Positions 40,379 to 61,481 of a DNA stretch of 64,000 nucleotides are shown one piece after another. The DNA is taken from positions 16,754-80,753 of the forward strand of contig CAYPFY010000003.1 of NCBI GenBank assembly GCA_964410105.1, given 5' to 3'. The notes beneath the pieces were generated by a model that saw nothing but the letters and a program-made list of their open reading frames with translations, was not told where the DNA came from and ran no database searches. This stretch comes from an uncultured Chlorobiaceae bacterium. GTDB lineage: Bacteria; Bacteroidota; Ignavibacteria; UBA10030; SZUA-254. The translations under genes and the position numbers were made by a program. The first letter of the stretch is position 1. Every line of letters begins with the position of its first letter.

Positions 40379-40556
40379 AAGGTAGCATATACCGTCACAA
40401 AACTATTGCGGAAGCTTAACATTTTAATAAAGGTTGAAACGATTGCGGCTCGACCCAGTCACCACGCATTTTAACCGGCCTTCACTCATGATACTTTTGT
40501 GACAAATTTTCCTATCTTTATACGAGAATGAGCACCGAAAATTCATACAGACAACG

Positions 40557-41279: not shown

Positions 41280-42735
41280 ACTCTTTTTCAAGAGTCTGTA
41301 CTGGAAGATTTCCGCCGTCTTCCTCCTGCTACTTCTCCTTCTCGGTATCGCCTTTAACTTTATCACGCTGTTCTCTACTGAAATGTACTTCCAGGAGGGA
41401 AATCAGCGGCTTCATCGTCGTTTTGCCAGCTTCGTTGCAGATTTATTACAATCGTACAGCAGTACCTCGCTTGACCAAGGTGAAATTCAAAAGGTGTTCG
41501 AACAGGTGAACAAGATGAATCCGAGCGTCGAGGTGTATCTCATCGATGAGCAGGGAACCATCCTCTACTCATCTACGCCGTTTGAGAACTTGAAGCTTCA
41601 TCAGATTGACATCCAACCCATTAAGAAATTTCTTGCTGTAGAAGGTAAACAATTTACGATGGGAGAAGATCCGAAAGGTATCCATAAAGAAAAGGTGTTC
41701 ACCGCCGCTCCGTTCGTCTTTCATGAGAAAAAGGGTGGCTACGTGTACGTGATTTTAGGCGGTGAGGAATATGATTCAGCTCTTCAGTTTATTCAACAAA
41801 ACTACATTCTCCGTCTCGGCGTTAAAACGCTCATCATCAGTTTGATTGCCGCAGCGATCATCGGCTTGCTGAGCATCGGATTCCTCACCCGTCGTTTATA
41901 CAGGTTGACAAAGGCAATGACTGAATTCAGTATCGGCAACTTTTCACAGCGGGTTTGTAACGTGAGCGATGATGAGATCGGCACAGCCGCACGCACATTC
42001 AATCAGATGGCAGAAATGATTCAACGGCATGTTGATGAGCTTGCGGCAATCGATTCGTTGCGTCGGGAACTTATTGCGAATGTTTCGCACGATCTCCGCA
42101 CCCCGTTGTCATCAATGCAGGGGTACGTTGAAACAGTGATTCTTAAAGACGCATCTCTTACGACCAGTGAGCGTCAAAAGTACCTTCAGACGATTCTTGA
42201 GAGCACGATCAAACTCAACGCGCTTGTGCAAGAATTATTTGAGTTGAGCAAACTCGATGCAAGGCAGACATTGCCAAAGCCGGAGTCATTCTCGCTCTCG
42301 GAACTCGTCCAAGATGTCGCGCAAAAGTTTCACCTGCGGGCGGAGAAGAATAATATTCAGATTGATACGTCTCTCCCCAACGATCTTCCGTTCGTTCGAG
42401 CAGATATTGGGATGATCGACCGAGTATTGCAGAACTTAATAGAAAACGCCATCAACTACACGGCAGCAAATGGACGCATAACCCTGCACGTAGCCCGCGT
42501 TGAGGACAAATTGCGCGTTGATATTGCCGATACAGGATGCGGTATTCCTGCGAGGGACCTTGCCAGCGTGTTTGACCGTTTTTACCGGGCCCGAAGTAAC
42601 CGCTCAGCCAATGATGGCACAGGTCTGGGGCTGGCGATTGTGAAGAAGATATTGACGCTCCACGGCGAGGATATTCACGTGGAGAGTCGTGAGCATGTTG
42701 GGACCAGATTCTACTTCACGTTACCATTGTCCTGA
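41272..42735 (+). CDS. sensor histidine kinase (second copy, on the island)
   Basis: Two transmembrane segments flank a periplasmic domain of about 150 aa. The H-box is VSHDLRTPLSSM. The N-box is LIENAINYTAANG. The G-boxes are ADTGCGIP and GTGLGLAIV. It overlaps the response regulator by 8 nt. Confidence 0.9.
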   Translation: MPRLFFKSLYWKISAVFLLLLLLLGIAFNFITLFSTEMYFQEGNQRLHRRFASFVADLLQSYSSTSLDQGEIQKVFEQVNKMNPSVEVYLIDEQGTILYSSTPFENLKLHQIDIQPIKKFLAVEGKQFTMGEDPKGIHKEKVFTAAPFVFHEKKGGYVYVILGGEEYDSALQFIQQNYILRLGVKTLIISLIAAAIIGLLSIGFLTRRLYRLTKAMTEFSIGNFSQRVCNVSDDEIGTAARTFNQMAEMIQRHVDELAAIDSLRRELIANVSHDLRTPLSSMQGYVETVILKDASLTTSERQKYLQTILESTIKLNALVQELFELSKLDARQTLPKPESFSLSELVQDVAQKFHLRAEKNNIQIDTSLPNDLPFVRADIGMIDRVLQNLIENAINYTAANGRITLHVARVEDKLRVDIADTGCGIPARDLASVFDRFYRARSNRSANDGTGLGLAIVKKILTLHGEDIHVESREHVGTRFYFTLPLS

Positions 42736-42764
42736 AATTTAACACGTTATGCCCTTCTGATATG

Positions 42765-42988
42765 CAGTCGCAAGATATTCAGAGCTAGTGTAGGCTCGAT
42801 TCAGCGGAAGAAGAGTTGTTAAGAATGGCAATTACGAAACTGGGGCTTTCCGCGCGAGCTTATGATTGCATTTTGAAGGTGGCACGCACCATTGCTGACC
42901 TCGCGGCTTCAACCGATATTCGTCCCGAGCATATTAACGAGGCACTACAGTCCAGAAGCGCGGACAGGAATTTGTGGCAGAGTGGATA
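42765..42988 (+). pseudogene. orphan 3' fragment of a comM/yifB gene, copy 2 (diverged direct repeat of copy 1)
   Basis: The fragment translates to ...EEELLRMAITKLGLSARAYDCILKVARTIADLAASTDIRPEHINEALQSRSADRNL, which is the same Mg_chelatase_C end as copy 1 in the same orientation. Identity to copy 1 is roughly 75% at the nucleotide level over about 215 bp. It begins about 30 nt after the histidine kinase stop. Confidence 0.5.
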
Positions 42989-43399
42989 GCGATCAGAACA
43001 GCAGCACTTGAAAGAAATTTGATTGACTAAGTTTTAGCATCATTCAGATTGACTGATACTTGTATTTCTTGAGTAAAGTGAACAAATTTGCACTCGTTTA
43101 TCGCATGAATCTCACCCCATTTTTCACATCGTGACAATTGAATTATGAAGTTCAGTGCTCGGAACAGATCATAAGGCAGGATCACTGCAGTTGAGGATCC
43201 TCAGCTCAAAGTCGGTGATACGGCTTAGGCCGTCATCAAATCTACGAAACTATTATCGGAAAGGATGGTCTCCCAATGTCCTCTTTCTGCCCTCGGAGAG
43301 TTGCTAATGTTGTTCAATGAGACAATGAGCCCGTGGATGGCTGATCCAGCGAAATAAGGAGTCAGTACACATCATTCGGTCGATTCCTGACTCGGTTAT

Positions 43400-45712: not shown

Positions 45713-46225
45713 AGGGGTGCATTCACCAGCCGATTTTTTGAGTGTTCCGTTTTTTCACGTACTGATCACGCCCGGAAATTCAGTCGATAAGAGTATGACA
45801 CAACTGAGCAATCTGTTGGTTCATTCCCACATGACTTCTTCGGGCATTTGTCAAGGAAACGATTACAGGATAAGCGGATGATTGACGCGCTCCACGTGAG
45901 ATGGTTTATTGGGATATGGGTTGGCCGATCGTGATTCTCCTCTACCCCCGAAAATCGAGAATCGAAATGAACGAAACGACTGAAACTAAGAAGAATATAT
46001 CTGATTGTCAAAACTAACAACTCGTGATCGAAAAACCAACGAAGTTTGTCCGCGGGCAGTGACTTTGCGAACATGGCCGACGATGGACGATAGCACCGAT
46101 CGAGGCCGGATCCAGGGGCTTTTGTGCCATGAAGGTGACATGGCAAGAAGGCACCAGACCCTTCCTCTTTCGCTCTCGTTCGCTACGGGGAACTGAAGGC
46201 GCCCGCACGCGGGATCGCCCTGTAA

Positions 46226-49147
46226 TTGCATGTTTCTGGCCCATTCGATAAATTGACATCGAAGGTCTCGTTCCCTTCTCACTTTTTCCCTTGGAAAACT
46301 TTGGAAACGCTCGTCGTCAAGGGCGCCCGCGTCCATAATCTGAAAAATATCGACGTGGAGATGCCCCGCGATAAACTGATAGTCATCACGGGCCTCTCCG
46401 GCTCCGGCAAATCGAGTCTTGCGTTCGATACGATTTACGCCGAGGGGCAGAGACGGTATGTCGAAAGCCTCTCCGCGTACGCCCGCCAGTTTCTCGGCCT
46501 CATGGAAAGGCCCGATGTCGATAAAATCGAGGGGTTGAGCCCCGCGATATCGATAGAGCAAAAGTCGGTCTCCCATAACCCCCGCTCCACAGTCGGTACC
46601 GTCACCGAGATCTACGACTACCTGAGACTCCTTTTTGCCCGGGTCGGGATCCAGCATTGTTACAATTGCGGCCGGAGAGTCCAGAGGCAATCAGTCGACC
46701 AGATCATCGATGCCGTCATGTCGTACTCTTCCGGCTCGAAGATCCACATCCTTGCGCCCGTCATCCGGGGGCGAAAAGGCCATTACCGTGAACTTTTTGA
46801 GGAAATCCTTCGGGAAGGCTTCCTTCGCGCGAGGGTCGACGGCGAGATCAGAGAGATTTCGCGGGGGATGCAGGTCGACCGCTATAAGGTGCATAATATC
46901 GAGATCGTCGTGGATCGGCTCTCCGTGAAGGGAGATATGCGCAGCCGCATTGCTGATTCCATCGAAACAGCTCTCCGGATGGGGTCCGGGCTGGTCATCA
47001 TCGACTCCGGAGCCAAGGAACAGCTTTTCAGCCAGCATCTCGCCTGCCTCTACTGCGGGATAAGCTATGATGAGCCCGCTCCGAATTCTTTTTCGTTCAA
47101 TTCGCCCTATGGCTCATGCCCTTCCTGCAGCGGGCTCGGCGAAACAAAGGAGTTCGATCTGGACCTCATCATGCCGAACCGCTCACTTTCCATTAACCAG
47201 GAGGGGCTCGCTCCGCTCGGAAAGCCGCGCGACACATGGCTCTGGCGACAGGTCCGGGCGGTGGCTTCAAGATTCCAGGCGGATCTCGACCAACCCCTTT
47301 CCCAGCTTCCAAAGAACTTTGTCGATGTCCTCATCAAAGGGGGAGGGAATGAAAAATTCGACATTCGTTACACCTACTCGACGGGCCGCATCGCCACGTA
47401 CCGGCAGCGGTTCGAGGGTCTGCTGAAGATGCTGAAGCATTACTACGACCAGACCTCCTCCGAGGGAATCCGGCAATGGGTGGAGTCTTATATGCGCACG
47501 AAAGCCTGTCCCCTGTGCGGGGGAGGACGGTTGCGCCGCGAGAGCCTCGCCGTCCGCCTTGTCGACTCCGAAACCGCCCGTGAAGTCAATATCCGCGATC
47601 TGGTGCAATTCTCAATCCGGGAGGCTTTCGGTTTTTTCTCACAACTGCACCTGAGCGCCCGCCAGATGGAGATCGCCCGGCAGGTTTTGAAGGAAATAAC
47701 GCAGCGGCTCGGTTTTCTCCTCAACGTCGGCCTCGATTACCTCACGCTTGACCGCTCCGCGCGCACCCTTTCCGGAGGAGAAGCGCAGCGCATACGGCTT
47801 GCCACCCAGATCGGCTCACGCCTCGTCGGCGTCCTCTACATCCTCGACGAACCGAGCATCGGACTTCACCAGCGGGATAACGTGAAGCTGATCGACAGCC
47901 TCAAGGAGCTGAGGGATATGGGTAACACGGTCATCGTCGTCGAGCATGACAGGGAGATGATCCGCTCCGCCGATTACCTTGTCGACCTCGGACCCGGCGC
48001 CGGCGAACACGGAGGCCATGTCGTCGCGACAGGGAAACCCTCCCGGCTCCGGATGGGAAAATATGACGGCGCTTCGTCGTCGACTGCCGAATATATAACC
48101 GGGAAGAGAATCATCGAACTTCCCAGGAGCCGGCGGGACGGTTCGGGCAATGTCATTAGGCTCCGGGGTGCCCGGGGGAATAACCTGAAATCGGTGACGC
48201 TCGCGGTCCCCCTGGGAAAATTCGTGTGCATCACGGGGGTGAGCGGCTCGGGGAAATCGACGCTTATTTCAGAAACCCTTTACCGGATTTTGTCCAGAAA
48301 GTTTTATAAGTCAAAAGACGTCCCGCTCCCCTACGGTTCCATTGACGGCCTCGCCTATGTCGACAAGGTGATAGAGATCGACCAGTCCCCCATCGGACGT
48401 ACTCCCCGCTCAAACCCGGCGACTTATACCGGCTTATTCACGTATATCCGGGATCTCTATGCGCAACTTCCCGAGGCGAAGATACGGGGCTATAAGGTGG
48501 GCCGGTTCAGCTTCAACGTGAAGGGGGGACGCTGCGAAGAATGCCAGGGGGACGGAGTCCGGAAAATTGAAATGAATTTCCTGCCCGACGTCTATGTCCT
48601 CTGCGAAGTCTGCAAGGGAAAAAGATATAACAGGGAGACGCTCGAGATTCTGTTCAAATCGAAATCCATCGCAGATGTTTTGAATATGACCGTCGAGGAG
48701 GCCGTCACTTTTTTCAGCGAAATCCCCCGCCTCCGCCGAAAGCTCGAAACCCTGCGAGATGTCGGCCTCGGTTATATCAGGCTCGGCCAGCAGGCAACAA
48801 CCCTCTCCGGCGGGGAAGCCCAGAGGGTCAAACTCTCAACAGAACTCTCCAAGGTGGGGACCGGAAAAACTCTCTATATCCTTGATGAGCCCACGACCGG
48901 GCTTCATTTTGAGGATATCCGGATGCTCCTCTCGGTTCTGAATAAGCTCGTCGATAAGGGAAATACCGTCGTCGTCACCGAGCATAATCTCGACGTGATC
49001 AAGACGGCCGACTGGATCATCGACCTGGGACCGGAAGGGGGGAAGGAGGGGGGTGAAATCATCGCCGAGGGAACTCCAGAAGCGGTTGCCAGGAACCGAC
49101 GCTCCTATACGGGGATGTTTCTGAAGGGGGAATTGAAACTCTCGTAG
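46226..49147 (+). CDS. uvrA: excinuclease ABC subunit A
   Basis: Two ABC ATPase modules are present ([12 protein letters not shown] and [11 protein letters not shown]) with zinc-finger Cys clusters. The probable true start is the in-frame TTG at about 46301 ([31 protein letters not shown]...), matching canonical UvrA N-termini. The 25 residues upstream of it are non-homologous. Confidence 0.9.
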
Positions 49148-49159
49148 GAAATCCCTACC

Positions 49160-50212
49160 TTGCCGAAACCTACCATGGCGGGTTTCTCACAGAAAGATAA
49201 AACACGCCTCATCCCGGTTTTCAAGGCAATCCTGACCGGCGCATACACCCCGCTCGACCTGCGGGAATTCGTCCTTCTTTGTCACGATCTCGCTCTTCCT
49301 TTTCTTCGGAAAAAGATTCATCAGGGCAAGCTTAACCTCGCCTCGATCCGTCTCAATGAACATGATGCGGTCTATGATTGCCTCGCCGACCTTTTCGCAC
49401 GCGATGATCAGGGGAATTTCCAGTCCATCCGTAAGTTTTTCGACGCTCAGCTTCCCGATTGGGAATCCGGCGATGCCGATGGCCTCATCGTCACCCTCCG
49501 CCATCTCGTCTTCGCCAAGATTAATAACGGCATCATCAGGCTTTATTCCGAGGCGGATCCCGCGCTCGGAAAAATTCTCAGGAACATGAAGAAAGCGCTG
49601 GAAACCAGGTCACTGTTCGAGCAGACGACGAGATTCGGCGATGTCTTCCTCGTCCCTGCCGGAGCCGACCCGCTCTTTCATCTGCCCCCCCTGGCACCAG
49701 ATCAGATCCAGCGTGCCTTCTCTCTCGCCGTTCTTTTGCACGACAATGTCCCGACGATGCTCTCCAAACTCCGGTCCGTCCTCATCGACCAGAACGATTG
49801 CCAGAGATCGGTACTTATGATGACCGCAGCCCTGATGTTCAAGGAAATCTATGAGTTGGGCGGGGAGGAGGCGTCCCAACCCAACGTTGCTGAGGAACGC
49901 CTGGAGAGAGAGCGTCTGGGCAAAATTATCACAAAAATTCGGGGGGAAATGTGGGCCGAACTGCATCCAGGCTATGTCGGGAAGGGGAAGTGCAGCGAGG
50001 AGATTTTTGCAAAATACCTGGACGCCATGGATGATATACTCCAGGGGTTTCTCGCCGATGATAATCCGGACGGATTTACTTTTTACGAGCATCTGAGGGC
50101 AAAAATGCCCGAGCTCACTCCCGGGGAGTACAGGAAAAATCACCGGATCACGCTTGAATATTTTGCCAAGGTCGGCCGGGAACGCATCCGAAAGGAACTG
50201 AAATCTGAGTGA
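49160..50212 (+). CDS. hypothetical protein (no recognisable domain), first gene of the FG-GAP/anti-sigma-like module
   Basis: 350 aa, predicted soluble and helical. It starts 13 nt after uvrA. No sigma-70 region 2 or region 4 signature could be identified by eye. Confidence 0.5.
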   Translation: MPKPTMAGFSQKDKTRLIPVFKAILTGAYTPLDLREFVLLCHDLALPFLRKKIHQGKLNLASIRLNEHDAVYDCLADLFARDDQGNFQSIRKFFDAQLPDWESGDADGLIVTLRHLVFAKINNGIIRLYSEADPALGKILRNMKKALETRSLFEQTTRFGDVFLVPAGADPLFHLPPLAPDQIQRAFSLAVLLHDNVPTMLSKLRSVLIDQNDCQRSVLMMTAALMFKEIYELGGEEASQPNVAEERLERERLGKIITKIRGEMWAELHPGYVGKGKCSEEIFAKYLDAMDDILQGFLADDNPDGFTFYEHLRAKMPELTPGEYRKNHRITLEYFAKVGRERIRKELKSE

Positions 50213-50256
50213 TCTCCGTTGCCATTGTCACCGGTTAGTTTACTGATAAAGCGCAT

Positions 50257-51633
50257 ATGAAGCATATCGAAGAAAAGATACTGGAGCGTTATGTCCTCAG
50301 GGCGGACGGGGGGACGGACCCCGCGATTGAGGCGCATCTGAAGGAATGCCCCGGTTGCGACGCGCTGAGGCAACAGATCAAGTCCTATTACGACGAATTC
50401 TCCGAAATCCGCCGCGAGCGGACTGTGGAAAACCCGGAGGCGATCACGCTCAGGAATATGCGCGTCGCGCCTTTTGAAACATTGCGCATGCCTGTCACGC
50501 TTCCGGCCCGCGTCGTTCTGTTCGCCATCCGCCATCCCGCTTACTCCGTCATGAGCCTTGCCGCGGCCATCGTTCTTGCGCTCGTGCTTCTCTACCCCGG
50601 CAAGGCGCCCAAGGATCTGAATCCTTCGTATGCGCGCCCGAAGGATGAATTCCTCGTCGTCTATAACAAGGACGGCGAAGAGCTCTGGCGTAAACATGTC
50701 GAGAAGGGGTGGGACATCGAACTTGCCAAATGGCCGCTGAACCGCCGATCGATTTTTACCGCCGACGCGGACGGCGATGGAAAGAACGAAGTTTTCTGCA
50801 TCTATGGCGGCATCTACGATAATCCGACTCTGAATGCCGTGTTCTGCTACAACCCGGACGGCTCAGAGCGGTGGAAGTATCAGTATCATCGGAATATCAG
50901 TTTTGGGTCGGAATCTTTCGTCGATAACTACTTCTTTAACTCGATGGTCGTCGGCGATTTTGACCGGGACGGTCACCTCGATATTATTGCCGAGCTGGAA
51001 CATGCCAAGCGCTATCCCAACGTGATCATCCGTCTGGACGCAAAAACGGGCGATTTTCTGGGAGAGTTCTGGCACCCGGGGAATGTCGAGTACATGGCCC
51101 ACAGGGATATCGACGGCGACGGCGTCGAGGAGATTTTCCTGACAAGTTCCAACGCGTTCGCCGGCGCCGCACCCCTCCTCGTGCTTGATCCGCGTGCGAT
51201 CAAGGGGGTGGCCCCCGTTCCGCCCGAATTCGCTCCCCCGGGAGTTCCGCAGGGTCTTGAAAAATACTATCTCCTCTTCCCTCGGAGCGGCCTGGAAAAA
51301 TCAAAAGATTTTCTCTCTACCGCGGGCGAGGTGATGTACTTCAAGTCCGACGGGACTCTTGAACTGATCGTATCCGATCACTTCAAAAACGGAACGTCTT
51401 TTGCGCTCAATTTTTACCTCGATTCGACGATGCGCTGCACGAAGGTGCTCGCCACCGAGCCGAATCTGCAATACGCGCGCAGGCTCCAGTCCGAGGAGCT
51501 GACGCTCCGGAAGATCACCGAGAGCATCCTGGACTCGCTCCGGACGTCGATTCAGTATTGGGATGGGGAAAAATTTGTGAACGAGCCGACGATGAATAAG
51601 TACTATAAGTCGGCCCTTAAACCCCTGCCATGA
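50257..51633 (+). CDS. anti-sigma-factor-like membrane protein: N-terminal zf-HC2 zinc finger, one transmembrane helix, and an extracytoplasmic FG-GAP-repeat domain
   Basis: The N-terminus ILERYVLRADGGTDPAIEAHLKECPGCDALRQQI has the H-x3-C-x2-C motif of zf-HC2 anti-sigma factors. The transmembrane helix is VVLFAIRHPAYSVMSLAAAIVLALVLLY. The ectodomain has FG-GAP-type Ca-binding repeats (DADGDGKNE, GDFDRDGHLDII, DIDGDGVEEIF). Confidence 0.65.
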   Translation: MKHIEEKILERYVLRADGGTDPAIEAHLKECPGCDALRQQIKSYYDEFSEIRRERTVENPEAITLRNMRVAPFETLRMPVTLPARVVLFAIRHPAYSVMSLAAAIVLALVLLYPGKAPKDLNPSYARPKDEFLVVYNKDGEELWRKHVEKGWDIELAKWPLNRRSIFTADADGDGKNEVFCIYGGIYDNPTLNAVFCYNPDGSERWKYQYHRNISFGSESFVDNYFFNSMVVGDFDRDGHLDIIAELEHAKRYPNVIIRLDAKTGDFLGEFWHPGNVEYMAHRDIDGDGVEEIFLTSSNAFAGAAPLLVLDPRAIKGVAPVPPEFAPPGVPQGLEKYYLLFPRSGLEKSKDFLSTAGEVMYFKSDGTLELIVSDHFKNGTSFALNFYLDSTMRCTKVLATEPNLQYARRLQSEELTLRKITESILDSLRTSIQYWDGEKFVNEPTMNKYYKSALKPLP

Positions 51634-53084
51634 AGACGGCCGTGGCTGTCTTTCTTGTCCTGGCGTGGATCACCCCTTCCGAGGCCCTCCATGTGAAAAA
51701 AGTCTCGCCCGGCCAGAACGCGCTCAATGTCCAAAAAAATTCCCGGATCGCTGTGACGTTTGATGATCCAATCACTCCCGCGGCTGCCGCCGGACAGACA
51801 ATACGCGTGGTCGGGAGTCTCAGCGGGTTTCACCTCAACAACTGGGTCGCTTATGACGCAGCCACCCGAACCCTTACGATCAGCGCGCGGTCGCCTTTTG
51901 CGGTCGGCGAGGTGGTGACCGTTATTCTGACGACGGGTCTGACAGATTCATCCGGCACTCCCATGCTGCGGCCTTTTGTGTGGAGCTTTACGATTCGAGC
52001 TGAACGGGGGACGGGCACCTTTGCCGAGACGCAACGCGTCCCGGTCGGCTCCGAGATAAATTCGGTTGCCGCATGCGATCTGGACTCCGACGGCGCCCTC
52101 GACCTTGTCAGCTCCAACGGCCGGGGTAGCAGCATCTCCACTCTCAGGAACGACGGACACGGCTCGTTCACCCTCCATCAGACTGTCGAGACCGGCATGA
52201 ATACGCTCGACGCTTTCCCCATCGATATCGACGCCGATGGATTTGCGGACGTCGCGGCAGTTCACTGGAATGCCAGCGATCTCTATATACTTCACAACGA
52301 CGGCCACGGTAACCTGACGACCCGGTCACGGATCGAACCCGGCTACATACCGTACGATGTCGCCATCGCGGATTTCAACGGCGACGGAAACCTCGATATA
52401 GCTCTCCCCAATCAATGGGGGAACGACGTTGCGGTGCTCACGAATGACGGCACCGGGTCTTTCACGAAATCCCAGGCGCTCCCCTCCGGGGTGATGCCCA
52501 GCGCCATCTGCGTAGGGGATTTCGATAACGACGGGGATATCGACTTTGCAGTCGTCAATTTCAGTCTCAACAATGTGACGATTTTCACCAACGATGGAAA
52601 AGGGATTTTTAGCGAAGCGTCCTCGGTTGATGTGGGGAGCAACCCGCTATCGATTGCGGCCGGCGATTTCGACGGGGACGGTTTTCTGGACCTCGCCGTT
52701 GTGAATCACAATATGGTGAGCGTCTCGATCTTGAAAAACGACGGCACGGGACACTTCCGCCATTCACAGACTTTTTTTACCAAGGGGAGGCCATTCTGGG
52801 TCGTCTGCGGGGACTTTGACGCCGACGGCGACCTCGACCTCGCCGTGTCGATATTTTCCCCCGGCGGTGTTACAATTCTCCGGAATGACGGTCACGGGAA
52901 TTTCATCTCTGGAGGCACTATACCGACAAGCCCCATGAATCTGCGCCTCGCCTGCGGCGACTGGAACGGTGACGGGGCTCTCGACATCGCAGTCGCCAAT
53001 AGAAACCCAAACGGCGTCCTCGTTCTCACAAACCAAAAATCGAAACCCCGCCAGGAATCCCTAAAACAGTCCGGTTTCCGCTGA
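51630..53084 (+). CDS. secreted protein: SbsA-type Ig-like (Big_5) domain followed by a 7-bladed FG-GAP beta-propeller
   Basis: Signal peptide MKTAVAVFLVLAWITPSEA. The Ig-like domain begins VSPGQNALNVQKNSRIAVTFDDPITPAA. Seven repeats follow, of the pattern D-x-D-x-D-G-x-x-D (CDLDSDGALDLV, IDIDADGFADVA, ADFNGDGNLDIA, GDFDNDGDIDFA, GDFDGDGFLDLA, GDFDADGDLDLA, GDWNGDGALDIA). The start overlaps the stop of the upstream gene (ATGA). Confidence 0.75.
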   Translation: MKTAVAVFLVLAWITPSEALHVKKVSPGQNALNVQKNSRIAVTFDDPITPAAAAGQTIRVVGSLSGFHLNNWVAYDAATRTLTISARSPFAVGEVVTVILTTGLTDSSGTPMLRPFVWSFTIRAERGTGTFAETQRVPVGSEINSVAACDLDSDGALDLVSSNGRGSSISTLRNDGHGSFTLHQTVETGMNTLDAFPIDIDADGFADVAAVHWNASDLYILHNDGHGNLTTRSRIEPGYIPYDVAIADFNGDGNLDIALPNQWGNDVAVLTNDGTGSFTKSQALPSGVMPSAICVGDFDNDGDIDFAVVNFSLNNVTIFTNDGKGIFSEASSVDVGSNPLSIAAGDFDGDGFLDLAVVNHNMVSVSILKNDGTGHFRHSQTFFTKGRPFWVVCGDFDADGDLDLAVSIFSPGGVTILRNDGHGNFISGGTIPTSPMNLRLACGDWNGDGALDIAVANRNPNGVLVLTNQKSKPRQESLKQSGFR

Positions 53085-53373
53085 TTCACCGGCGGTAGAC
53101 TTAAGGAACACCCCCCTGCAAAGAATTTTTTTTTGAAAATTCTCTGCAACCCTCCCCAACTGCCTGTATAAGGTACTAGAAGCGGTTACAGATTGACCGA
53201 TCACTCCTCTCGGAATATGGATCAGGGAGTAGAGGAGATGGGGAGAGGCAGATTAAATGCTGCCCTCCTCTCTATCCCCAAAGGGCTTGCGATCTCACCG
53301 CGCTAGGGGCCCGAATCGCATCAGGATTTTACAGGTGCGAATCACCGTACGTTTCTTCATAGGAGGGTTTTCC

Positions 53374-56300
53374 ATGTACAGTTGCGTCCGTATGTTCCTG
53401 CTCGCTTCCATTCTGCCCACCCTTGCTCTGTCACAAAATCCGACGACCAGCTGGCAACCGGTATTTCCCTATCCGACCGGGGGCGATCTGTATGCCATCA
53501 CGAGCGTCGGGGGTGTCCTGACGGCCGTCGGTACCGGGGGAACCATGGTAACCTCTTCCGACGGAGGGCAGACATGGCGGCTTCACCCGTATGTGGGCGG
53601 AACCACTGAAACATTCAAAGCCCTCGCCTACAAGTACCTTTCGAAAACGGTGCCGCCCCTGCAGAATTTCCCCACTGCGATTGCAGTCGGTACCAATGGA
53701 ACGATCGTGCGGACGACAAACGGCGGCACCTCGTGGTCGAAAGCCACCAGCGGCTCAACCCGTAATCTCTATGGAATCTCATTCAACGGAATTGATAATC
53801 CGGTGAACGGTACCGGCGGTGCAGTCGCGGTCGGGGATTCGGGGACGATTCTCTACAGCTCGAATTCGGGCAGCAGCTGGAATTCCATCTCGTCTCCGAC
53901 TTCTTCGAGGATCGTAGGGGTTTCGTTCAGCCCCGTCATAGCCGGACTAGGAATTGCCTCCGCTGCTAACGGAGACCTTCTTCGGACGAAGAACGGCGGG
54001 ACCAGCTGGACGCCCCTGGGAAATTTCCCTATTTCGCCGCGGCAGGTTAGATTCATTGACACTGCCAAAGTCATAGTTCTTGACAACGTCTCATTCTTCA
54101 TTAGCTCGGATAGCGGTTCGAACTGGTCACAGAATTTTATCTCCAACAGCGATTCCCTTGTGAAGAATTTTCAATGTTTCGCGGCCTGGAATAAAGACAC
54201 TATTCTTGTGGGATCCGAATACCGTCTCTGGCGAACGACCGAGAATTTCGGGTCGGGCTGGCACCTCTGGCCTCCCCGCGGACAGACTGAGCGTGACATA
54301 CTCTATTACGGGCTCGTTTTCGTAAACAATACTACGGCGATAGCGGTGGGGTATGGAGGAGTCATCGCGAGGACCACAAATGCCGGCGACGACTGGACAA
54401 CGGTGGCATACGGGGCGTCGGGCTCGTATAAATCGGTCTCGTTCAGTGACGAAAAGCACGGATGGGTGGTCGGCGAGAATTCCGCAATCGTCCGGACCAC
54501 AAACGGCGGCCAGAGCTGGGCCGCGCTCTCCGGCTATCCCTGGAGCAACGTCCACGAGGACCAATTTCACGGATACCGCGGCGTTCATTTCATCAATAAC
54601 GATACCGGGTGGGTCGTCGGCGATTTGGGAAAGATTCTGCGAACATACGACGGCGGCGTTTCATGGGCGGACAGGAACACCGGGTCGTCTTCCAATAACG
54701 CCGTGCATTTCTTCAATGCCGAGACGGGTATCGTTGTGGGCACGGGCGGTTTCTACGGACAGGTAAATTACCCCAACGATGTCCCCGGAATATACCGTAC
54801 AACCAACGGAGGCGACACGTGGGCAATCCAGGAGAGTCTCTTTACGCCGGGCACCCGTGGCCATCTCTATAACATGTGCTTCGTCGACGCCAATCATGGC
54901 TGGGCCGTAGGAGATACAGGCTCCTATCCTTCGTTTGTGCCTGGCATCGCCCAGACCACCGACGGCGGCTTGTCGTGGACGGATAGCCTCCTACCGTTCG
55001 CGGGTTCGTTTAAGGGGATCTTCTTCAGGGATATTTCCCACGGCTGGGCCGTGGGGATGAAAGGGATATATCCCTCCGCGCAACCGCTGATCCTCCAGAC
55101 GACAAACGGCGGCACGAGCTGGTCCGAGGAAACAGGACACCCATACTTTTCCTCAGCTCTGAATGCCTCGTTCGAAAATGTCTTCTTTATCAGTTCGGCA
55201 GTCGGTTTTGTGGTCGGTTCGTCCCGTATCGACCCGGCCATCAATCCTTACGTGCCCGTCCCCGCGTTCGGTGCGCTGGCGTTCACGACGAACGGCGGAT
55301 TGTCCTGGAGCAGGGATACATCGTCCGCAGCCTATCTCAAGGACATAAGTTTCGCTCAGATCCCGGGATTTGGCTTTGTGGGATTCTCGGTGGTAGCCGG
55401 CATTTATTGCTCGGCCACGATTGTCGGTCCAGTGCAGACGGATACGTGGACGGGAGCCGTCGATAGCAATTGGAATAACGGGGCAAACTGGAGCCTCGGG
55501 ATCGCTCCCCTCAAATTTCATCATGTTCTGATTAGCCCTAACTCCATTCATCCCGACCCGGTCATATTTCACCGGCAGGATATTGTTGCCATAGCAAGCC
55601 TGTATCTCGCCGACACATTAACAGTGAGGGATTCTGTAAGGCAGTTTGTTGTGAAAGGGCCGGTGACGCGTCAGGCTGGCGGATATATCAACGCGAAGGG
55701 AACACACGGTAACTATCTGTTCGGAGGAGGGTTCATTGTCATCCCGGGCTTTCTCTCGAACGCATCCGGATCCTCGTCCGTCAGCGCCGTCGCCGGATCC
55801 TTCATCGATCTTGGGAACTCGAGCGCCTCATTCAGGGGAACGGGGGACGTTTTCGGAAACTACTATGACCTGATATTCGATTCCTCGTCGGTCATGAGAT
55901 CGGCCGGCGGAATATCCGTGGAGAACACTCTCACCGTTCTCAAGAGGCTTGATGTCAACGACAACGATACTGTCGAGGTTACAAATGCCGATCCGCAGTC
56001 GATCCAGGGGGACGGAAAAGTTGAGGGGGGCACAATAAGCCGGAAAATTCAGGTCGACGCATCAGACCAATACCGCTTCGAGAGTTCCGGTTCATTTGTC
56101 CGGTTCGACGTCGGGTCGACGTACCCGGATCTGATGGACATGACCGTCAAGGCAGGATCAACGCCCCGGGCCTTCGAGTTGAACTGGGAACCCGTCCCCG
56201 TAAGCCAGCGAAGCGTCACAGACCACACGATCCGTGCATATCCCGTTCAACAGTCCACGAAGTACGTCATCGGGATCCCGGGCTCATCTCTGGCCCTCAG

Positions 56301-57633
56301 GAAGACGGGCAGTATACTCTACGATCCCAATTTCAAGCCGAAAGTGAAACGGATCTATTCGGTCAGGGCCCGGGGCGGCGGAGGGGGAGGGCTAGGGAAG
56401 ACCGGAGCGTCGCCTGAGAACCGGTTCCAGGCAGAACTTTCTCTCAGGTATGAACCCTCCGAAGTCGATTCGGCCGTCGTCGAGGATTCTCTTGTTCTCG
56501 CCCGCGGACCCGTCGCCGTGGATTCTGTCGTGGACGGCTGGAATATGGTCGCGCTCCCCGTGGTGCCGGAGAATACCACCAAGGACACCGTCTTCCCGGG
56601 GGCGATTTCCAGGGCGTACAACTACAACGGCTCGTACCAGATACAGACAACCCTTGCGCCTCAGACGGGCTACTGGCTGAAATATCCGTCAAGACGGGCG
56701 ATCGCGATTCTCGGGAACGACCAGGAGACTGCACCCGTCATCGTCAAAAAAGGATGGAATCTGATCGGTGCTCTCAGCTACGCTGTCAGCGCATCCACCG
56801 TCATCCCCTCCTCGCCCGGCCTGCTGGCGAGTCAGTTCTTCGGCTACAGCCGGGGATACAAACCCGCGGCCACACTGAGCGCGATGCGGGCTTACTGGAT
56901 AAAGGCGAACGCCGACGGGTCGATTTTCCTCGATGCCAATGCGGTCGCCTCGGCAAAAACAGTTTCTCCTCTCGCAGCATTGAACGACCTGAATGCGCTT
57001 ACAATTTCCGACAACTCGGGCACCGGGCATGAAATCTACTTTGGAGGAAACGTCGATCCGGCGCAGTTCGAGTTGCCGCCGCTGCCTCCTGAGGGGGTCT
57101 GCGATGTCCGGCTCTCGACCAACCGGATGGTCGAAGTTGCCGATCGGAAGAATGAGAAGGTAGTCCCCATAAAAATTACCTCGGCGCTTTATCCCGTGAC
57201 GATCCGATGGCAAATCAAGGATGAGAGCTACACCGGCGCTATCCGGGTGGGAGGAGTTTCCCGGCCGCTTCACGGCACGGGAAGCGTGACGGTCGATGAT
57301 CCGTCGTCCGCGATATTGCTCGTGCTTTCGCCGGTTCCGCGCCGCGAAATACCCGTCGAATTTGCCCTCCGGCAGAACTTTCCGAACCCGTTCAATCCGA
57401 GCACCACAATCCGCTACGAGCTTCCAGAGGGTGGCAGGGTGGCTTTGCGGATCTATAACATACTCGGGCAACTCGTCGCGACCCCCATCGACGAGGTGCA
57501 ACCTTCCGGGTTTAAATCCGTAGTATGGAATAGTGGAGGGTCGGCGAGCGGGGTTTATTTCTACCGGCTCGAGGTAACGACCAATAACAAGAATGTTTTT
57601 CTGAGCACGATGAAGATGGTCCTCCTAAGGTAA
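53374..57633 (+). CDS. giant (about 1,420 aa) secreted multi-propeller BNR/Ycf48-like repeat protein with a T9SS C-terminal sorting domain
   Basis: The Met is preceded by the RBS AGGAGGG. A signal peptide is present. At least 12 Asp-box repeats occur (SSDGGQTW, TTNGGTSW, SSNSGSSW, TKNGGTSW, TTNAGDDW, TTNGGQSW, TYDGGVSW, TTNGGDTW, TTDGGLSW ...). A middle region of about 650 aa has no recognised family. The C-terminus FPNPFNPSTTIRYELPEGGRVALRIYNILGQLV...VYFYRLEV matches the Por/T9SS C-terminal domain consensus. Confidence 0.8.
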   Translation: MYSCVRMFLLASILPTLALSQNPTTSWQPVFPYPTGGDLYAITSVGGVLTAVGTGGTMVTSSDGGQTWRLHPYVGGTTETFKALAYKYLSKTVPPLQNFPTAIAVGTNGTIVRTTNGGTSWSKATSGSTRNLYGISFNGIDNPVNGTGGAVAVGDSGTILYSSNSGSSWNSISSPTSSRIVGVSFSPVIAGLGIASAANGDLLRTKNGGTSWTPLGNFPISPRQVRFIDTAKVIVLDNVSFFISSDSGSNWSQNFISNSDSLVKNFQCFAAWNKDTILVGSEYRLWRTTENFGSGWHLWPPRGQTERDILYYGLVFVNNTTAIAVGYGGVIARTTNAGDDWTTVAYGASGSYKSVSFSDEKHGWVVGENSAIVRTTNGGQSWAALSGYPWSNVHEDQFHGYRGVHFINNDTGWVVGDLGKILRTYDGGVSWADRNTGSSSNNAVHFFNAETGIVVGTGGFYGQVNYPNDVPGIYRTTNGGDTWAIQESLFTPGTRGHLYNMCFVDANHGWAVGDTGSYPSFVPGIAQTTDGGLSWTDSLLPFAGSFKGIFFRDISHGWAVGMKGIYPSAQPLILQTTNGGTSWSEETGHPYFSSALNASFENVFFISSAVGFVVGSSRIDPAINPYVPVPAFGALAFTTNGGLSWSRDTSSAAYLKDISFAQIPGFGFVGFSVVAGIYCSATIVGPVQTDTWTGAVDSNWNNGANWSLGIAPLKFHHVLISPNSIHPDPVIFHRQDIVAIASLYLADTLTVRDSVRQFVVKGPVTRQAGGYINAKGTHGNYLFGGGFIVIPGFLSNASGSSSVSAVAGSFIDLGNSSASFRGTGDVFGNYYDLIFDSSSVMRSAGGISVENTLTVLKRLDVNDNDTVEVTNADPQSIQGDGKVEGGTISRKIQVDASDQYRFESSGSFVRFDVGSTYPDLMDMTVKAGSTPRAFELNWEPVPVSQRSVTDHTIRAYPVQQSTKYVIGIPGSSLALRKTGSILYDPNFKPKVKRIYSVRARGGGGGGLGKTGASPENRFQAELSLRYEPSEVDSAVVEDSLVLARGPVAVDSVVDGWNMVALPVVPENTTKDTVFPGAISRAYNYNGSYQIQTTLAPQTGYWLKYPSRRAIAILGNDQETAPVIVKKGWNLIGALSYAVSASTVIPSSPGLLASQFFGYSRGYKPAATLSAMRAYWIKANADGSIFLDANAVASAKTVSPLAALNDLNALTISDNSGTGHEIYFGGNVDPAQFELPPLPPEGVCDVRLSTNRMVEVADRKNEKVVPIKITSALYPVTIRWQIKDESYTGAIRVGGVSRPLHGTGSVTVDDPSSAILLVLSPVPRREIPVEFALRQNFPNPFNPSTTIRYELPEGGRVALRIYNILGQLVATPIDEVQPSGFKSVVWNSGGSASGVYFYRLEVTTNNKNVFLSTMKMVLLR

Positions 57634-57751: not shown

Positions 57752-58339
57752 CTACGGCCTTGAAACGAACCGGCTTCCCTTGACGTGGAATCGCCACGGC
57801 TTTTCTGCACCTTTGCGTATCCCGATCCGGCGTGTGCGCCCGATTCGCGAGCTCGCGATTTTCGCCCCTCTTCCGATGTAAATCTCGCTCCCGGTCAAGT
57901 CGATTCCGTTCTCCTTGCGCCCGATCGCAAGGGCCTGACACAACCTGGCGGGGCCGCTCGTTAACTTGGTGTCATCCTCGACACCTCCCCTGTTCTTCAC
58001 CATGGTTGACATTCCCCTCAAAGGCTCGAGCGCCCGCAGGAGGATTGCTCGTCCCTTCCCCCGCCTTTCCGTCACGACATTCGAACAAAAATGCATCCCG
58101 TATGTAAAATAGACATAGAGGTGGCCTCCCTCCAGGAACATGACCTCGTTCCGCTTCGTTTTTCCCCGGTAAGCGTGACTCGCTGGGTCTATTTCCCCCA
58201 GGTAGGCTTCTACCTCGACAATTCTTCCCGCCAGAGTTTTCTTCCCGAGCTTGCGTACGAGAAGTTTTCCGAGTAAATCTTTTGCGACAGTGAGTGTAGG
58301 GCGGAGATAAAAGGAGCGGGGGAGCTTTTCGTGATGCAT
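57752..58339 (-). CDS. DNA-3-methyladenine glycosylase (MPG/AAG family)
   Basis: 195 aa. The protein contains LPRSFYLRPTLTVAKDLLGKLLV and GEIDPASHAYRGKTKRNEVMFLEGGHLYVYFTYGMHFC, which are the MPG-family signatures. Confidence 0.85.
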   Translation of the reverse strand: MHHEKLPRSFYLRPTLTVAKDLLGKLLVRKLGKKTLAGRIVEVEAYLGEIDPASHAYRGKTKRNEVMFLEGGHLYVYFTYGMHFCSNVVTERRGKGRAILLRALEPLRGMSTMVKNRGGVEDDTKLTSGPARLCQALAIGRKENGIDLTGSEIYIGRGAKIASSRIGRTRRIGIRKGAEKPWRFHVKGSRFVSRP

Positions 58340-58357: not shown

Positions 58358-59965
58358 TTAGCGCTTTGTGAAGTCCTTGATGATTTTATCGACCTCCTCC
58401 TCCGAGATGCCGGTGCCGAGCTTAGAGCTGGATTTGGCCGCTGGCGGCGGCGGCACGGCGTCCGATTTTTTGGGCGCATTGCTCGCCTTCAGCCGGATTC
58501 TTTCGTCGATCTCCTCCATCCACGATTTTCCACCTTTTGCCGGTGTTTCCCGCTGTGCCGGCGGCCCCGGTGCGGGAGCGCTCCGCACTTCCTGGGGAGC
58601 GTCAGGCGGATTGATCGGACGTGTCTCGAAGGCCAGCCTTTTGACGTTGAACATGTGCTTGGCCGAAACGTTCTCTGAAATAATCGATCCGCCAAATGTC
58701 CCCGGCCCGAGCGTCATCGACGGCAGGAGCTCATTTGTGTACCCGACAGCGCCGAGCGCCGCCTGCGTATTGACGAGGACCCTGAAGGCCGGCTTTTCAA
58801 GCGCGAATTTCATGATGATATCCTCGTCCATCGAGTGGATCACCATCGTATGCCCGATCCCGCCGAATTCAAGGAGCTCGACGCAGCGTTCGCAACCCTC
58901 GCGCCAGTTTTCAACCGTGTAAAAAGAAAGGACGGGCGAAAGCTTTTCACGCGAGAGGGGGTGAGATCTTCCCACCTCCTGAAGTTCCGCGATCAATACC
59001 TGCGTATCTCCGGGGACGCTGATCCCAGCGTTCTGGGCGATGAATGTCGCCGGCTTTCCCACCATGTTCGGGTTGATGGCCCCTCGGGAATCAAACATGA
59101 GCCGTCCCAGTTTTTCCTTGTCGTCTCCTTCCACGAAGTGACATTTGCGGCGTTTGAGTTCCTCGACGACGACGGTTTTTACGGATGAATCGACGACGAC
59201 CGATGCCTCGGTCGAACAGAGGACCCCGAGGTCGAAGATTTTTCCGGAAACGACGTCCGCAACCGCTTTGCGGAGATTTGCGGTTTTTTCAATGTAGGCC
59301 GGCACATTTCCCGACCCCACCCCGTAGGCGGGCTTACCGGAGCTGTACGCGGAACGGACCATGGGATTGCTTCCCGTGGCAAGGATGATCGAGACGAGCT
59401 TGTGTTTCATCAGTTCGTTCGTGGCCTCAATCGTCGGGTTCGAGAGGCAGGACATCAGCCCCTGGGGGGCCCCGGCGGCCCCCGCTGCCTGGGCGATGCA
59501 ATTCATCGCCTCGACCGTGCACCGTGCAGCCCGGGGATGGGGACTGGCAACAATGGCGTTTCGTCCTTTGACGGAGATGATTGCCTTGAACATGACGGTC
59601 GAGGTCGGGTTCGTGGAAGGGATGAGGGCCGCGACCACTCCCATCGGCTCTGCAATCTCGATGATCTTTTTCTCCCTGTCTTCCCGGATGACGCCGACCG
59701 ACCGGAGGTCTTTGATCGATTCCCACACGCGTCGCGTCGCAAATTCGTTTTTCTTCCTCTTGTCCTCGGATTTGCCGAATCCCGTCTCCTCGTGGGCCAT
59801 CCGGCCGAGACGCTCCGCCGCTTCAAACCCCGCATCGGCCATGGCCTTCACGATCCTGTCAACGCGCACCTGGTCGTAGGCGCGGAATTCTCCCTGCGCC
59901 TGCTTCGCCTTCTGGACGAGATCGCGCATTTCCTGTATGGATTGAAGATCCTTGTCAAGCGCCAT
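58358..59965 (-). CDS. CoA-acylating aldehyde dehydrogenase, EutE/PduP family, with a C-terminal extension of about 95 aa
   Basis: About 440 aa align to the EutE/PduP architecture. The catalytic Cys lies in GVLCSTEASVV. The N-terminus MALDKDLQSIQEMRDLVQKAKQAQGEF is like EutE. After the domain ends (…NVKRLAFETRP), a Pro-rich linker (INPPDAPQEVRSAPAPGPPAQRETP) precedes two short amphipathic helical segments, SWMEEIDERIRLKA and GISEEEVDKIIKDFTKR. Confidence 0.75.
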   Translation of the reverse strand: MALDKDLQSIQEMRDLVQKAKQAQGEFRAYDQVRVDRIVKAMADAGFEAAERLGRMAHEETGFGKSEDKRKKNEFATRRVWESIKDLRSVGVIREDREKKIIEIAEPMGVVAALIPSTNPTSTVMFKAIISVKGRNAIVASPHPRAARCTVEAMNCIAQAAGAAGAPQGLMSCLSNPTIEATNELMKHKLVSIILATGSNPMVRSAYSSGKPAYGVGSGNVPAYIEKTANLRKAVADVVSGKIFDLGVLCSTEASVVVDSSVKTVVVEELKRRKCHFVEGDDKEKLGRLMFDSRGAINPNMVGKPATFIAQNAGISVPGDTQVLIAELQEVGRSHPLSREKLSPVLSFYTVENWREGCERCVELLEFGGIGHTMVIHSMDEDIIMKFALEKPAFRVLVNTQAALGAVGYTNELLPSMTLGPGTFGGSIISENVSAKHMFNVKRLAFETRPINPPDAPQEVRSAPAPGPPAQRETPAKGGKSWMEEIDERIRLKASNAPKKSDAVPPPPAAKSSSKLGTGISEEEVDKIIKDFTKR

Positions 59966-59976: not shown

Positions 59977-60414
59977 TTAAACCTCGGTGAGCTGGCCCGA
60001 TGTCCAGAGAAACAATCCGGTCCGATCATCCTGTGACCGAGACAATGGGTCTCCCTCGAATTCGTCAATGAAAACTTCAAGGGCGAAGAGTTTCGTCCCC
60101 GGGAGGACATGCCCGCCAAACACGCGTCCCTGAAAATCGCCGAGAAGAACATGGACGTGGACGAACGGCTTACCGTCCCGCACGCTGACGTTTCCGCTCA
60201 GGCTGAGGATCTCCATGCCCCCCGGGAATTCCATCGGATTGTACCTTTTCGTTCCCTGGTCGTAATAGGCGACGACGGCATGAGTCGTCGCGCCGATCGC
60301 CTGTATCCGCCCCAGCCGGATTTTTTCACGTTGGACGATTTCGGTGAGTCCCTCGAGCAGGTCTGCGCCCAGCGGCAGCTGACCCATGATCGTTCGCTTG
60401 ACGGTGTAGTTCAT
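59977..60414 (-). CDS. DUF296 / PPC-domain protein
   Basis: 145 aa. The protein contains RLGRIQAIGATTHAVVAYYDQ...VHVHVLLGDFQGRVFGGHVLPGTKLFALEVFI, typical of the PCC/DUF296 beta-fold. Confidence 0.6.
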   Translation of the reverse strand: MNYTVKRTIMGQLPLGADLLEGLTEIVQREKIRLGRIQAIGATTHAVVAYYDQGTKRYNPMEFPGGMEILSLSGNVSVRDGKPFVHVHVLLGDFQGRVFGGHVLPGTKLFALEVFIDEFEGDPLSRSQDDRTGLFLWTSGQLTEV

Positions 60415-61481
60415 CAGTTGCCGATTGCGGGGAATTCAAGCGCCTGCTGACCTGAAGCCGGAAGGGGGGAGCGCGGGATGTTGAAATGGGTGTAGGCGAG
60501 ATCCGTGGCCTCCCGGCCGCGCGGCGTCCGGACCATGAATCCTTCCTGAATCAGGTAAGGCTCATAAACCTCTTCGATCGTCCCGGGTTCTTCACCTACC
60601 GCGACCGCAAGGGTGTTGACTCCGACCGGCCCCCCGGCATATTTTTCCACGATCGTCCTCAAAATGCGCTTGTCCATCTCGTCGAGCCCGTGATCGTCGA
60701 CCTCGAGCTTGTTGAGGGAATAGACAGCCACATTCTTTGTGATCACGCCGCCGTATTTTTCCAGAGATTCCTCCACCTGGGCAAAGTCCCTGCACCTTTT
60801 CAGGAGCCTGTTGGCGATTCGCGGTGTTCCGCGTGAGCGCCGTGAGATCTCGCTCGAACCATCCCCGTCGATCCCGACGCTCAGGATCGCCGCGGAACGG
60901 GTGATGATGCGGCGCAGATCCTCCGGGCCGTAGTAATCCAGCCTGTTTGTTACGCCGAACCGGGATCTCAAGGGGGCGGAAAGGAGTCCCGCGCGCGTCG
61001 TTGCGCCCACAAGCGTGAACCGGGGTAGGCTGAGTTGAACGCTCCGGGCATTCGGACCGCTGTCGATGACGATGTCGATCCTGAAATCCTCCATGGCCGA
61101 ATAGAGGTATTCTTCGACGATCGGGTTCAGCCGGTGGATCTCGTCGATGAAGAGGACATCCCCGGTCTGGAGATTAGTGAGGACGCCGGCAAGGTTATAC
61201 GGTTTGTCGAGCGCCGGACCTGACGTCGACCGGATCTGTACACCCATCTCGTTGGCGATGACGTATGCAAGGGTGGTCTTTCCCAGCCCCGGAGGCCCGG
61301 TGAGGAGGACGTGATCCAGATTCTCGGCCCGTTTTCGCGCGGCCGTGATGAAGATGCGGAGATTATCGACGATCTTTCTCTGGCCGACGAAATCGCTGAA
61401 CCGAACCGGACGCAATGTCCGGTCGAGCTCGGCTTCCGATTCAGCGCGCTCGGGCGATGTATGGTCTGATCGCTTCGACAT
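60414..61481 (-). CDS. ruvB: Holliday junction branch-migration ATPase RuvB
   Basis: The Walker A is [14 protein letters not shown] and the Walker B is [11 protein letters not shown]. Sensor and winged-helix segments are present. Confidence 0.95.

Follow-up and report, generated by a model that had tools for sequence, protein, structure and literature searches.

A conserved two-helix tail on a type I acylating aldehyde dehydrogenase of Ignavibacteria and related lineages as a candidate encapsulation signal for FRAG1 microcompartments

Introduction

The aldehyde dehydrogenases of bacterial microcompartments (BMCs), here called AldDhs, come in two types: type I, within IPR013357, has a C-terminal encapsulation peptide (EP), and type II, within IPR012408, has an N-terminal one (Sutter et al. 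2021, PMC8217296). Here we describe a gene whose product, an aldehyde dehydrogenase (ALDH) with a long C-terminal tail, lies in the same enzyme branch as the type I AldDhs with C-terminal EPs found in the EUT2, GRM6, ACI, FRAG5 and FRAG8 systems (Sutter et al. 2021). It is located in a 64,000-nucleotide stretch of DNA (the window) from an uncultured Chlorobiaceae bacterium (assembly GCA_964410105.1, contig CAYPFY010000003.1, positions 16,754 to 80,753).

FRAG BMCs have their shell genes dispersed among as many as six loci (Sutter et al. 2021, PMC8217296). One of these, FRAG1, is a dispersed, “shell protein only” type most prominent in Ignavibacteria. It counts 57 loci, and its gene set is a BMC-P triplet with two BMC-H and, in some cases, PduS/T (Sutter et al. 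2021, Supplementary Data 2). It is also reported from Kryptonia, Bacteroidetes, Chlorobi, Rhodothermaeota and one Proteobacterium, and has no identified enzyme, encapsulation peptide or function (Sutter et al. 2021). As for individual genomes, Melioribacter roseus has seven BMC-P genes in five loci (Axen et al. 2014).

We propose, with about even confidence, that the tail of this ALDH is a bipartite encapsulation or scaffolding signal that brings an enzyme turning acetaldehyde into acetyl-CoA to FRAG1 shells whose genes lie elsewhere. EP-bearing type I AldDhs and fragmented BMC loci are already known. What appears to be new is the tail itself, with its two conserved helices and roughly five times the length of the C-terminal extension seen in PDB entries 3K9D and 5J78. 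The location of the gene in a housekeeping operon, far from shell genes, also appears to be new, as does the confinement of the tail to lineages with orphan FRAG1 shells, which gives a testable cargo proposal.

A type I acylating aldehyde dehydrogenase with an appended tail

The open reading frame (ORF) and its parts are as follows, H1 and H2 being the two helices of the tail.

58358..59965, minus strand: tailed ALDH ORF, uninterrupted, translating to 535 aa
58619..59965, minus strand: catalytic domain, residues 1-449, CoA-acylating acetaldehyde dehydrogenase type I (TIGR02518/AdhE-N-terminal-like)
59216..59218, minus strand: codon of the presumed catalytic Cys250
58529..58618, minus strand: linker 1, residues 450-479, Pro/Ala-rich, predicted disordered
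58472..58528, minus strand: H1 and its cap, residues 480-498, KSWMEEIDERIRLKASNAP
58421..58471, minus strand: linker 2, residues 499-515, Pro/Lys/Ser-rich, disordered, unconserved
58361..58420, minus strand: terminal helix H2, residues 516-535, LGTGISEEEVDKIIKDFTKR, an EP-like element

The top model for the protein is TIGR02518 (acetylating acetaldehyde dehydrogenase, “EutH_ACDH”), with 614.7 bits over residues 4-449, about 5 bits short of the curated cutoff of 620.1. The match covers model positions 1-446 of 488; the last 42 positions, which find no match in the window ALDH, are the family’s own C-terminal region. The AdhE N-terminal half (NF010378) follows with 553.6 bits over model positions 8-451 of 872 (cutoff 951), and the EutE-type model PRK15398 gives 254.2 bits against a cutoff of 403. 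In the PDB comparison, 3K9D scores 501 bits, 5J78 497 bits, AdhE ~367 and 5JFL ~185. The PDB molecule names of 3K9D, 5J78 and 5JFL are generic, and we take these entries to be Listeria Lmo1179, a Geobacillus enzyme and PduP, respectively. If IPR013357 is equated with TIGR02518, as we assume, the window ALDH groups with type I, so that a C-terminal signal would be expected were it a BMC member.

Residue C250, within GVLCSTE, is kept in all of 78 sequences and aligns with the Cys found in 3K9D and 5J78; we take it to be the catalytic cysteine. The window ALDH has no N-terminal extension, its residue 4 aligning with residue 5 of 3K9D.

The first-pass annotation had labelled the enzyme “EutE/PduP-type”, which was wrong in detail. 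Besides TIGR02518 being the top model, a type II assignment is ruled out by a PRK15398 score below cutoff, by the 185 bits to 5JFL and by the lack of an N-terminal extension. A bifunctional AdhE was also considered and rejected, since Pfam finds the Aldedh domain alone on the 535-aa protein, with no alcohol dehydrogenase (ADH) domain or anything else beyond it, and NF010378 is matched over its N-terminal half only. In AdhE, which is bifunctional and forms spirosomes, the N-terminal half is homologous to the window catalytic domain, but its Fe-ADH domain is lacking here, with a disordered two-helix tail in its place.

The Pfam Aldedh and NCBIfam models stop at about residue 449, and for this reason we treat the ~85 C-terminal residues as an appendage. 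It runs in the order linker 1, H1, linker 2 and terminal helix H2. The same annotation had described a Pro-rich linker and two amphipathic helices at 58358-58640, which corresponds to residues ~443-535 plus the stop codon. Here it was right: the three peptides it quoted could be placed at residues 451-475 (INPPDAPQEVRSAPAPGPPAQRETP), 481-494 (SWMEEIDERIRLKA) and 520-535 (ISEEEVDKIIKDFTKR), the helices are predicted, and the hydrophobic-moment analysis it had suggested agrees. H2 reaches a moment of 0.80, the maximum of the protein (11-residue window; mean 0.29, 95th percentile 0.57), and H1 is above the 90th percentile. The hydrophobic face includes V525, I528, I529 and F532 in H2, and W482, I486 and I490 in H1. 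An AlphaFold2 model built on a 78-sequence alignment places helices at 482-495 and 522-534. Its confidence, as the predicted local distance difference test (pLDDT), is ~80 for H2, about 55 for H1 and <50 for the linkers (linker 2 over residues 496-512).

The best 120 homologues, at 67-83% identity, are from metagenome-assembled genomes (MAGs) of Ignavibacteria type, and the tail is covered in all of them. For conservation we considered 328 distinct tails, pooled from all collected lineages, with a locus GC of 0.40-0.70. H1 follows the family motif S-W-[MIL]-[DE]-E-I-[ED]-x-R-[IL]-x-x-[KR]-A-G-N-x-P, present in 324 of the 328, and its residues W482, I486, R489, I490 and A494 are invariant in the 78 sequences. 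The H2 motif, [IL]-[SP]-[ED]-x-x-[VI]-[DE]-x-[IL]-[IVM]-x-x-F, is present in 314. Its final F is invariant although the search pattern permitted five residues there, and it ends 2, 3 or 5 residues from the C-terminus in 300 of these 314 tails (range 1-8).

The alignment consists of two conserved blocks with unalignable Pro-rich linkers between. On average, the commonest residue at a position has a frequency of 0.86 in the catalytic domain, 0.45 in linker 1, 0.73 in H1, 0.37 in linker 2 and 0.69 in H2. Conservation in linker 1 ends after a kept “PIN”, and among relatives linker 1 has 19-62 residues and linker 2 has 19-50. Judged from these alignments, the tail is under selection, with H1 and H2 kept across the 328 tails and the linkers free in length and sequence; on the same grounds, the conservation of the helices is far beyond chance.

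Furthermore, a profile of the tail, run against 1.84 billion representative proteins, gave 63 matches, 62 of which are C-terminal fragments of the same ALDH family. An ALDH domain lies directly upstream of the tail in 170 of 173 related loci, and two of the other three (L090 and L091) begin at a contig end. As far as these searches reach, the tail is exclusive to this ALDH family. The sole non-ALDH match of the profile, P0166 (3037 aa), has six weak stretches and no BLASTP match to the ALDH; it is probably a low-complexity or coiled-coil false positive. A PDB search with the tail returned nothing meaningful (best E = 0.35, on a Pro-rich stretch). A C-terminal sorting domain of the type IX secretion system (T9SS) was considered for the tail because a neighbouring 1458-aa protein seems to have one, and ruled out, the tail being two isolated helices and not a beta-sandwich.

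The terminal helix resembles metabolosome encapsulation peptides

The hydropathy of the tail helices was compared with that of the EPs of PduP, PduD, EutC, EutE and CcmN, with 2000 shuffles for each. H2 correlates best with EutC (r = 0.95, no shuffle as good) and PduP (r = 0.93, 2 shuffles as good), followed by EutE (r = 0.89, 13 shuffles) and PduD (r = 0.81, 69 shuffles). It does not match the carboxysomal CcmN peptide. The spacing h-x-x-h-h-x-x-h and an acidic polar face are common to H2 and the classical metabolosome EPs.

EPs are amphipathic helices of ~15-20 residues at a protein terminus, attached by a poorly conserved, flexible linker and with a characteristic hydrophobic spacing. H2 is predicted as such a helix (522-534), and the linkers before it are both variable (0.37-0.45 against 0.86 in the catalytic domain) and of pLDDT <50. 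The hydrophobic spacing of H2 is that of validated metabolosome EPs. The pattern of H2 is, on these comparisons, EP-like.

Some differences from the described systems should be noted. The EPs of PduP, PduD, EutC and EutE are N-terminal, whereas H2 is C-terminal, and they have no counterpart of the second conserved helix, H1. The type I AldDhs of BMCs have a targeting-like helix at the same protein end and the same anatomy of linker plus amphipathic helix. However, the window tail has ~85 residues and two conserved helices, against ~15-17 residues past the domain in the 3K9D and 5J78 chains, and the window tail profile does not retrieve other type I tails. In addition, in none of the loci examined does the tailed ALDH gene lie within or close to a shell locus.

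The tail occurs in the taxa that carry FRAG1 shells

The tailed ALDH is found in Ignavibacteria and unclassified Bacteroidota MAGs, in Chlorobi-labelled MAGs and Chloroherpetonaceae, and in Candidatus Kryptonium thompsonii. It is also found in Rhodothermales, including the isolates Rubricoccus marinus, Rhodocaloribacter litoris and Rubrivirga spp. This range coincides with the taxon labels of FRAG1. Moreover, two genomes have both parts: the MAG RIFCSPLOWO2_12_FULL_56_21 has a tailed ALDH (L018) and the FRAG1 BMC-P A3G43_13155, and Rubricoccus marinus SG-29 has a tailed ALDH (P0325) and the FRAG1 BMC-P BSZ36_14635.

Two MAGs named “uncultured Chromatiales bacterium” (L035 and L087) have the tailed ALDH as well and are probably mislabelled bins. 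A single “Proteobacterium” is likewise present in Sutter’s FRAG1 list.

FRAG1 loci thus have the same taxon range as the tailed ALDH and, like it, a dispersed gene organisation. However, they are defined by shell genes alone, with the tailed ALDH outside the catalogue entry, and it is here that a functional link between the two is inferred. In the literature searched, nothing after Sutter et al. 2021 mentions FRAG1 or ties the BMCs of these lineages to a cargo.

As for the mechanism, the gene product would be an active type I acylating acetaldehyde dehydrogenase that forms acetyl-CoA; its tail has two short amphipathic helices on long disordered linkers of free length. Like the peptides of PduP, PduD and EutC, H2 may bind a FRAG1 shell hexamer or trimer from the luminal side, with H1 as a possible second contact. 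If the enzyme is oligomeric, the two helices on each subunit would make it multivalent, and it could seed the core of a compartment. Inside the shell, acetaldehyde or a similar short aldehyde would be converted to acyl-CoA, as in other metabolosomes. Both the physical interaction of the tail with the shell and the presence of FRAG1 shells in the genome of the window are presumed in this scheme.

A wider proposal can be made, which we hold slightly less firmly, at a little under even confidence. The tailed ALDH would be the core cargo of FRAG1, with H1 and H2 forming a new bipartite class of EP that is missed by EP models. FRAG1 would then be a short-aldehyde-oxidising metabolosome whose cargo gene is constitutive, in a DNA-repair or housekeeping operon far from the shells. 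Such a dispersed “regulon” would date back to the common ancestor of Ignavibacteria, Kryptonia, Chloroherpeton-type Chlorobi and Rhodothermales.

Genomic context

The genes next to the tailed ALDH in the window are the following.

57752..58339, minus strand: methylpurine-DNA glycosylase (MPG; Pur_DNA_glyco, PF02245, 235.7 bits), context only
59977..60414, minus strand: PCC/DUF296 (PF03479)
60414..61481, minus strand: RuvB (PF05496, PF17864, PF05491)

MPG follows 18 bp after the ALDH stop codon. Upstream of PCC, on the same strand, are RuvB, RuvA, RuvC and YebC. The gap from PCC to the ALDH start is 11 bp, which makes co-transcription of the ALDH with PCC and RuvB likely. A promoter and terminator scan around the gene, not tuned for Bacteroidota, gave nothing informative; on the minus strand it found no such site between the ALDH and the upstream genes.

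In Ignavibacteria, the conserved gene string is recJ-yebC-ruvC-ruvA-ruvB-(PCC)-ALDH-MPG-uvrA. The order RuvB-PCC-ALDH is common to the Ignavibacteria loci L001-L005 and the Kryptonium locus L089, and in L006-L008 a pseudouridine synthase takes the place of PCC. The string ruvB-PCC-ALDH-MPG recurs in Ca. Kryptonium thompsonii. In total, 74 of the 115 related loci with enough flank have MPG within 1.5 kb of the ALDH. In other lineages, the ALDH has neighbours whose sequence motifs suggest efp-accB-accC, guaA and gcvH, and in Rubricoccus marinus it is solitary.

In Ca. Kryptonium thompsonii (L089, GCA_001442935.1), the tailed ALDH at 3641-5264 is split in two overlapping ORFs of 354 and 199 aa. 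This split is a frameshift or an assembly error, with the synteny of ruvB, PCC and MPG intact.

Shell genes were searched with six probes, each validated at >96 bits against PF00936 or PF03319. By tblastn and phmmer, none of the six matched a BMC-H or BMC-P in the 64-kb window. Among 40 further ORFs spanning 85..51633, Pfam found no shell protein, PduL/Pta or alcohol dehydrogenase. Genes of heme biosynthesis and of the nuo operon are among them, as are those for DnaK, ClpB, UvrA and two-component systems. A few other ORFs, including 51630..53084 and 53257..57633 (1458 aa), were covered by the shell probes only.

Within this scope, the earlier statement that the window has no BMC-H, BMC-P, phosphotransacylase (PTAC) or ADH holds, and so does the naming of a DNA glycosylase and a DUF296 protein as the neighbours, which Pfam confirms (PF02245 and PF03479).

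Arguments against encapsulation and alternative explanations

Several observations weigh against an encapsulation signal for FRAG1 shells. EP hidden Markov model searches in FRAG genomes are reported to have given no matches (Sutter et al. 2021, PMC8217296). Helix H1, which is as conserved as H2, has no significant hydropathy match to any of the classical EPs. The validated probes detected no shell gene in the ±10 kb around the tailed ALDH at any of 173 loci (~2.0 Mb), so that in this set the cargo-like gene always stands genetically apart from shells. If there were ~five scattered shell loci per genome, ~3 such proximities would be expected by chance, with a rough Poisson P near 0.05 for zero. 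The gene stands in a housekeeping and DNA-repair string, or beside efp-accBC-like genes, and is probably co-transcribed, unlike the usual inducible BMC operons. No companion cargo was found in 2.07 Mb of these lineages, where other ORFs with H1-like or H2-like peptides are limited to chance matches (E >0.3, in L7/L12 and DnaK). Finally, the overlap in taxa may reflect shared vertical ancestry in one clade of the FCB (Fibrobacteres-Chlorobi-Bacteroidetes) group, with no functional link.

The first-pass annotation had offered two options, a different targeting or oligomerisation role and a satellite or fragmented BMC locus. The latter gains real but indirect support from the enzyme branch, the spacing of H2, the taxon match with FRAG1 and the two genomes with both parts. 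The annotation had also held that a genome devoid of shell genes, together with a tail conserved in clearly non-BMC homologues, would speak against such a role, as would an ALDH outside the BMC-associated clades. Half of this was observed, the tail being conserved in hundreds of homologues that are all in non-BMC housekeeping contexts. Since a FRAG-type system would look exactly so, we do not read the conservation in non-BMC contexts as a refutation.

Among the alternatives, a shell-independent scaffold survives best, although we think it rather unlikely. The helices would dock a partner, such as a separate ADH or a phosphotransacetylase, or drive self-assembly into a filament or condensate, and toxic acetaldehyde would be channelled without a shell, in a split, in-trans analogue of AdhE spirosomes. 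The AdhE N-terminal halves being the next-best models after TIGR02518 fits this idea, as does a gene that is never beside shell genes and is found in constitutive, housekeeping contexts. Multivalent short helices on flexible linkers are, besides, a generic assembly device. However, the related loci show no conserved alcohol dehydrogenase or PTAC gene next to the tailed ALDH. The tail does not resemble the linker of AdhE or its ADH domain either, and Aldedh is the sole Pfam match. A scaffold also does not account for the specific fit of H2 to the EP spacing of metabolosomes, or for taxa that coincide with those of an orphan shell system.

One Chloroherpetonaceae locus (L090, GCA_046719715.1) has a Zn-dependent ADH at 889-1872, convergent with the tailed ALDH and ~0.6 kb from it, a proximity that can be counted in favour of a scaffold. 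It is accompanied by ferritin, FUR and rubrerythrin genes, and is the sole ADH seen near any tailed ALDH.

A lineage-specific regulatory tail is improbable in our estimate. In this case, H1 and H2 would fold back on the enzyme, for autoinhibition or cofactor gating, or be read by a chaperone, a protease or another regulator, with no compartment involved. Vertical inheritance in one clade, housekeeping operons, an H1 that is not EP-like and the only intermediate AlphaFold2 monomer pLDDT of H1 (about 55) are all compatible with it. Linkers of 19-62 and 19-50 residues, however, suit external tethering over a fixed intramolecular docking, and regulation leaves unexplained both the strict placement of H2 at the extreme C-terminus and its EP-like pattern. 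Furthermore, the closest tail-less relatives, 3K9D and 5J78, were crystallised, and are named aldehyde or acetaldehyde dehydrogenases.

Membrane targeting, in which the C-terminal amphipathic helix would anchor the enzyme to the cytoplasmic membrane in the manner of MinD or FtsA, is very improbable. A flexible linker followed by a terminal amphipathic helix is the architecture of known membrane-targeting sequences, and the extreme C-terminus is basic (FTKR, FSKR, FKK). Nevertheless, the polar faces are strongly acidic (SEEEVD, MEEIDE), which is unfavourable with anionic bacterial membranes, and the hydrophobic face is short, with four to five residues.

Lastly, we reject, on motif and taxon distribution, a cargo-loading peptide for an encapsulin (an HK97-fold nanocompartment): Family 1 targeting peptides are likewise C-terminal and linker-attached and Rubricoccus is noted to encode Family 4 encapsulins, but neither H1 nor H2 resembles the Family 1 consensus SDGSLGIGSLKRS, which is absent from the tail on inspection, bacterial Family 4 is restricted to Rubricoccus and Rhodothermus, with Ignavibacteria unmentioned in the main text of the survey, and the “LGxG” stretch ahead of H2 becomes “LPLP” in Rhodothermales.

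Returning to encapsulation, the tailed ALDH would be the first plausible cargo candidate for FRAG1, and a concrete hypothesis for the content of its shells. Suitable systems for addressing it are cultured organisms such as Rubricoccus marinus and Melioribacter roseus, as well as co-expression in E. coli. In broader terms, BMC discovery based on loci can overlook cargo encoded at a distance from the shell genes, and appendages of a linker plus a terminal helix on type I AldDhs offer a search route to such cargo. The H1 and H2 motifs could seed searches for more FRAG1 cargo, and could serve as tags for engineered shells.

Other features of the window

Two further features of the window are of interest.

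14788-15327, plus strand: cobalamin adenosyltransferase (PF01923, 208.7 bits), with a YCF48/BNR-like neighbour, upstream of the nuo operon
15615-25928, plus strand: complex I nuo operon, with NuoA, B, C, D, then J, K, L, M, N

The cobalamin adenosyltransferase is PduO-type, from a family also found in BMC loci (HMM table of Sutter et al. 2021, PMC8217296); the one in the window is probably a housekeeping enzyme. No NuoE, F or G was detected in the nuo operon at 15615-25928, where a 397-aa ORF (18575-19768) has only a weak 4Fe-4S match.

The region 38400-46200 has a GC content of 0.48-0.53, against ~0.58 elsewhere in the window. It contains a Spondin_N protein, an OmpR-type response regulator with a histidine kinase, and a Ser/Thr kinase-TPR protein. 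DUF58 adjoins UvrA in the relatives L001, L003 and L006, and for this reason these ~8 kb look like an inserted island.

In the window, UvrA and MPG, neighbours in relatives, are separated by four genes at 49160-57633. Their products are an unknown protein of 350 aa, an FG-GAP protein, one of 484 aa and the 1458-aa protein (53257..57633). This looks like a second lineage-specific insertion. The C-terminus of the 1458-aa protein, FPNPFNPSTTIRYELPE..., resembles a T9SS sorting domain.

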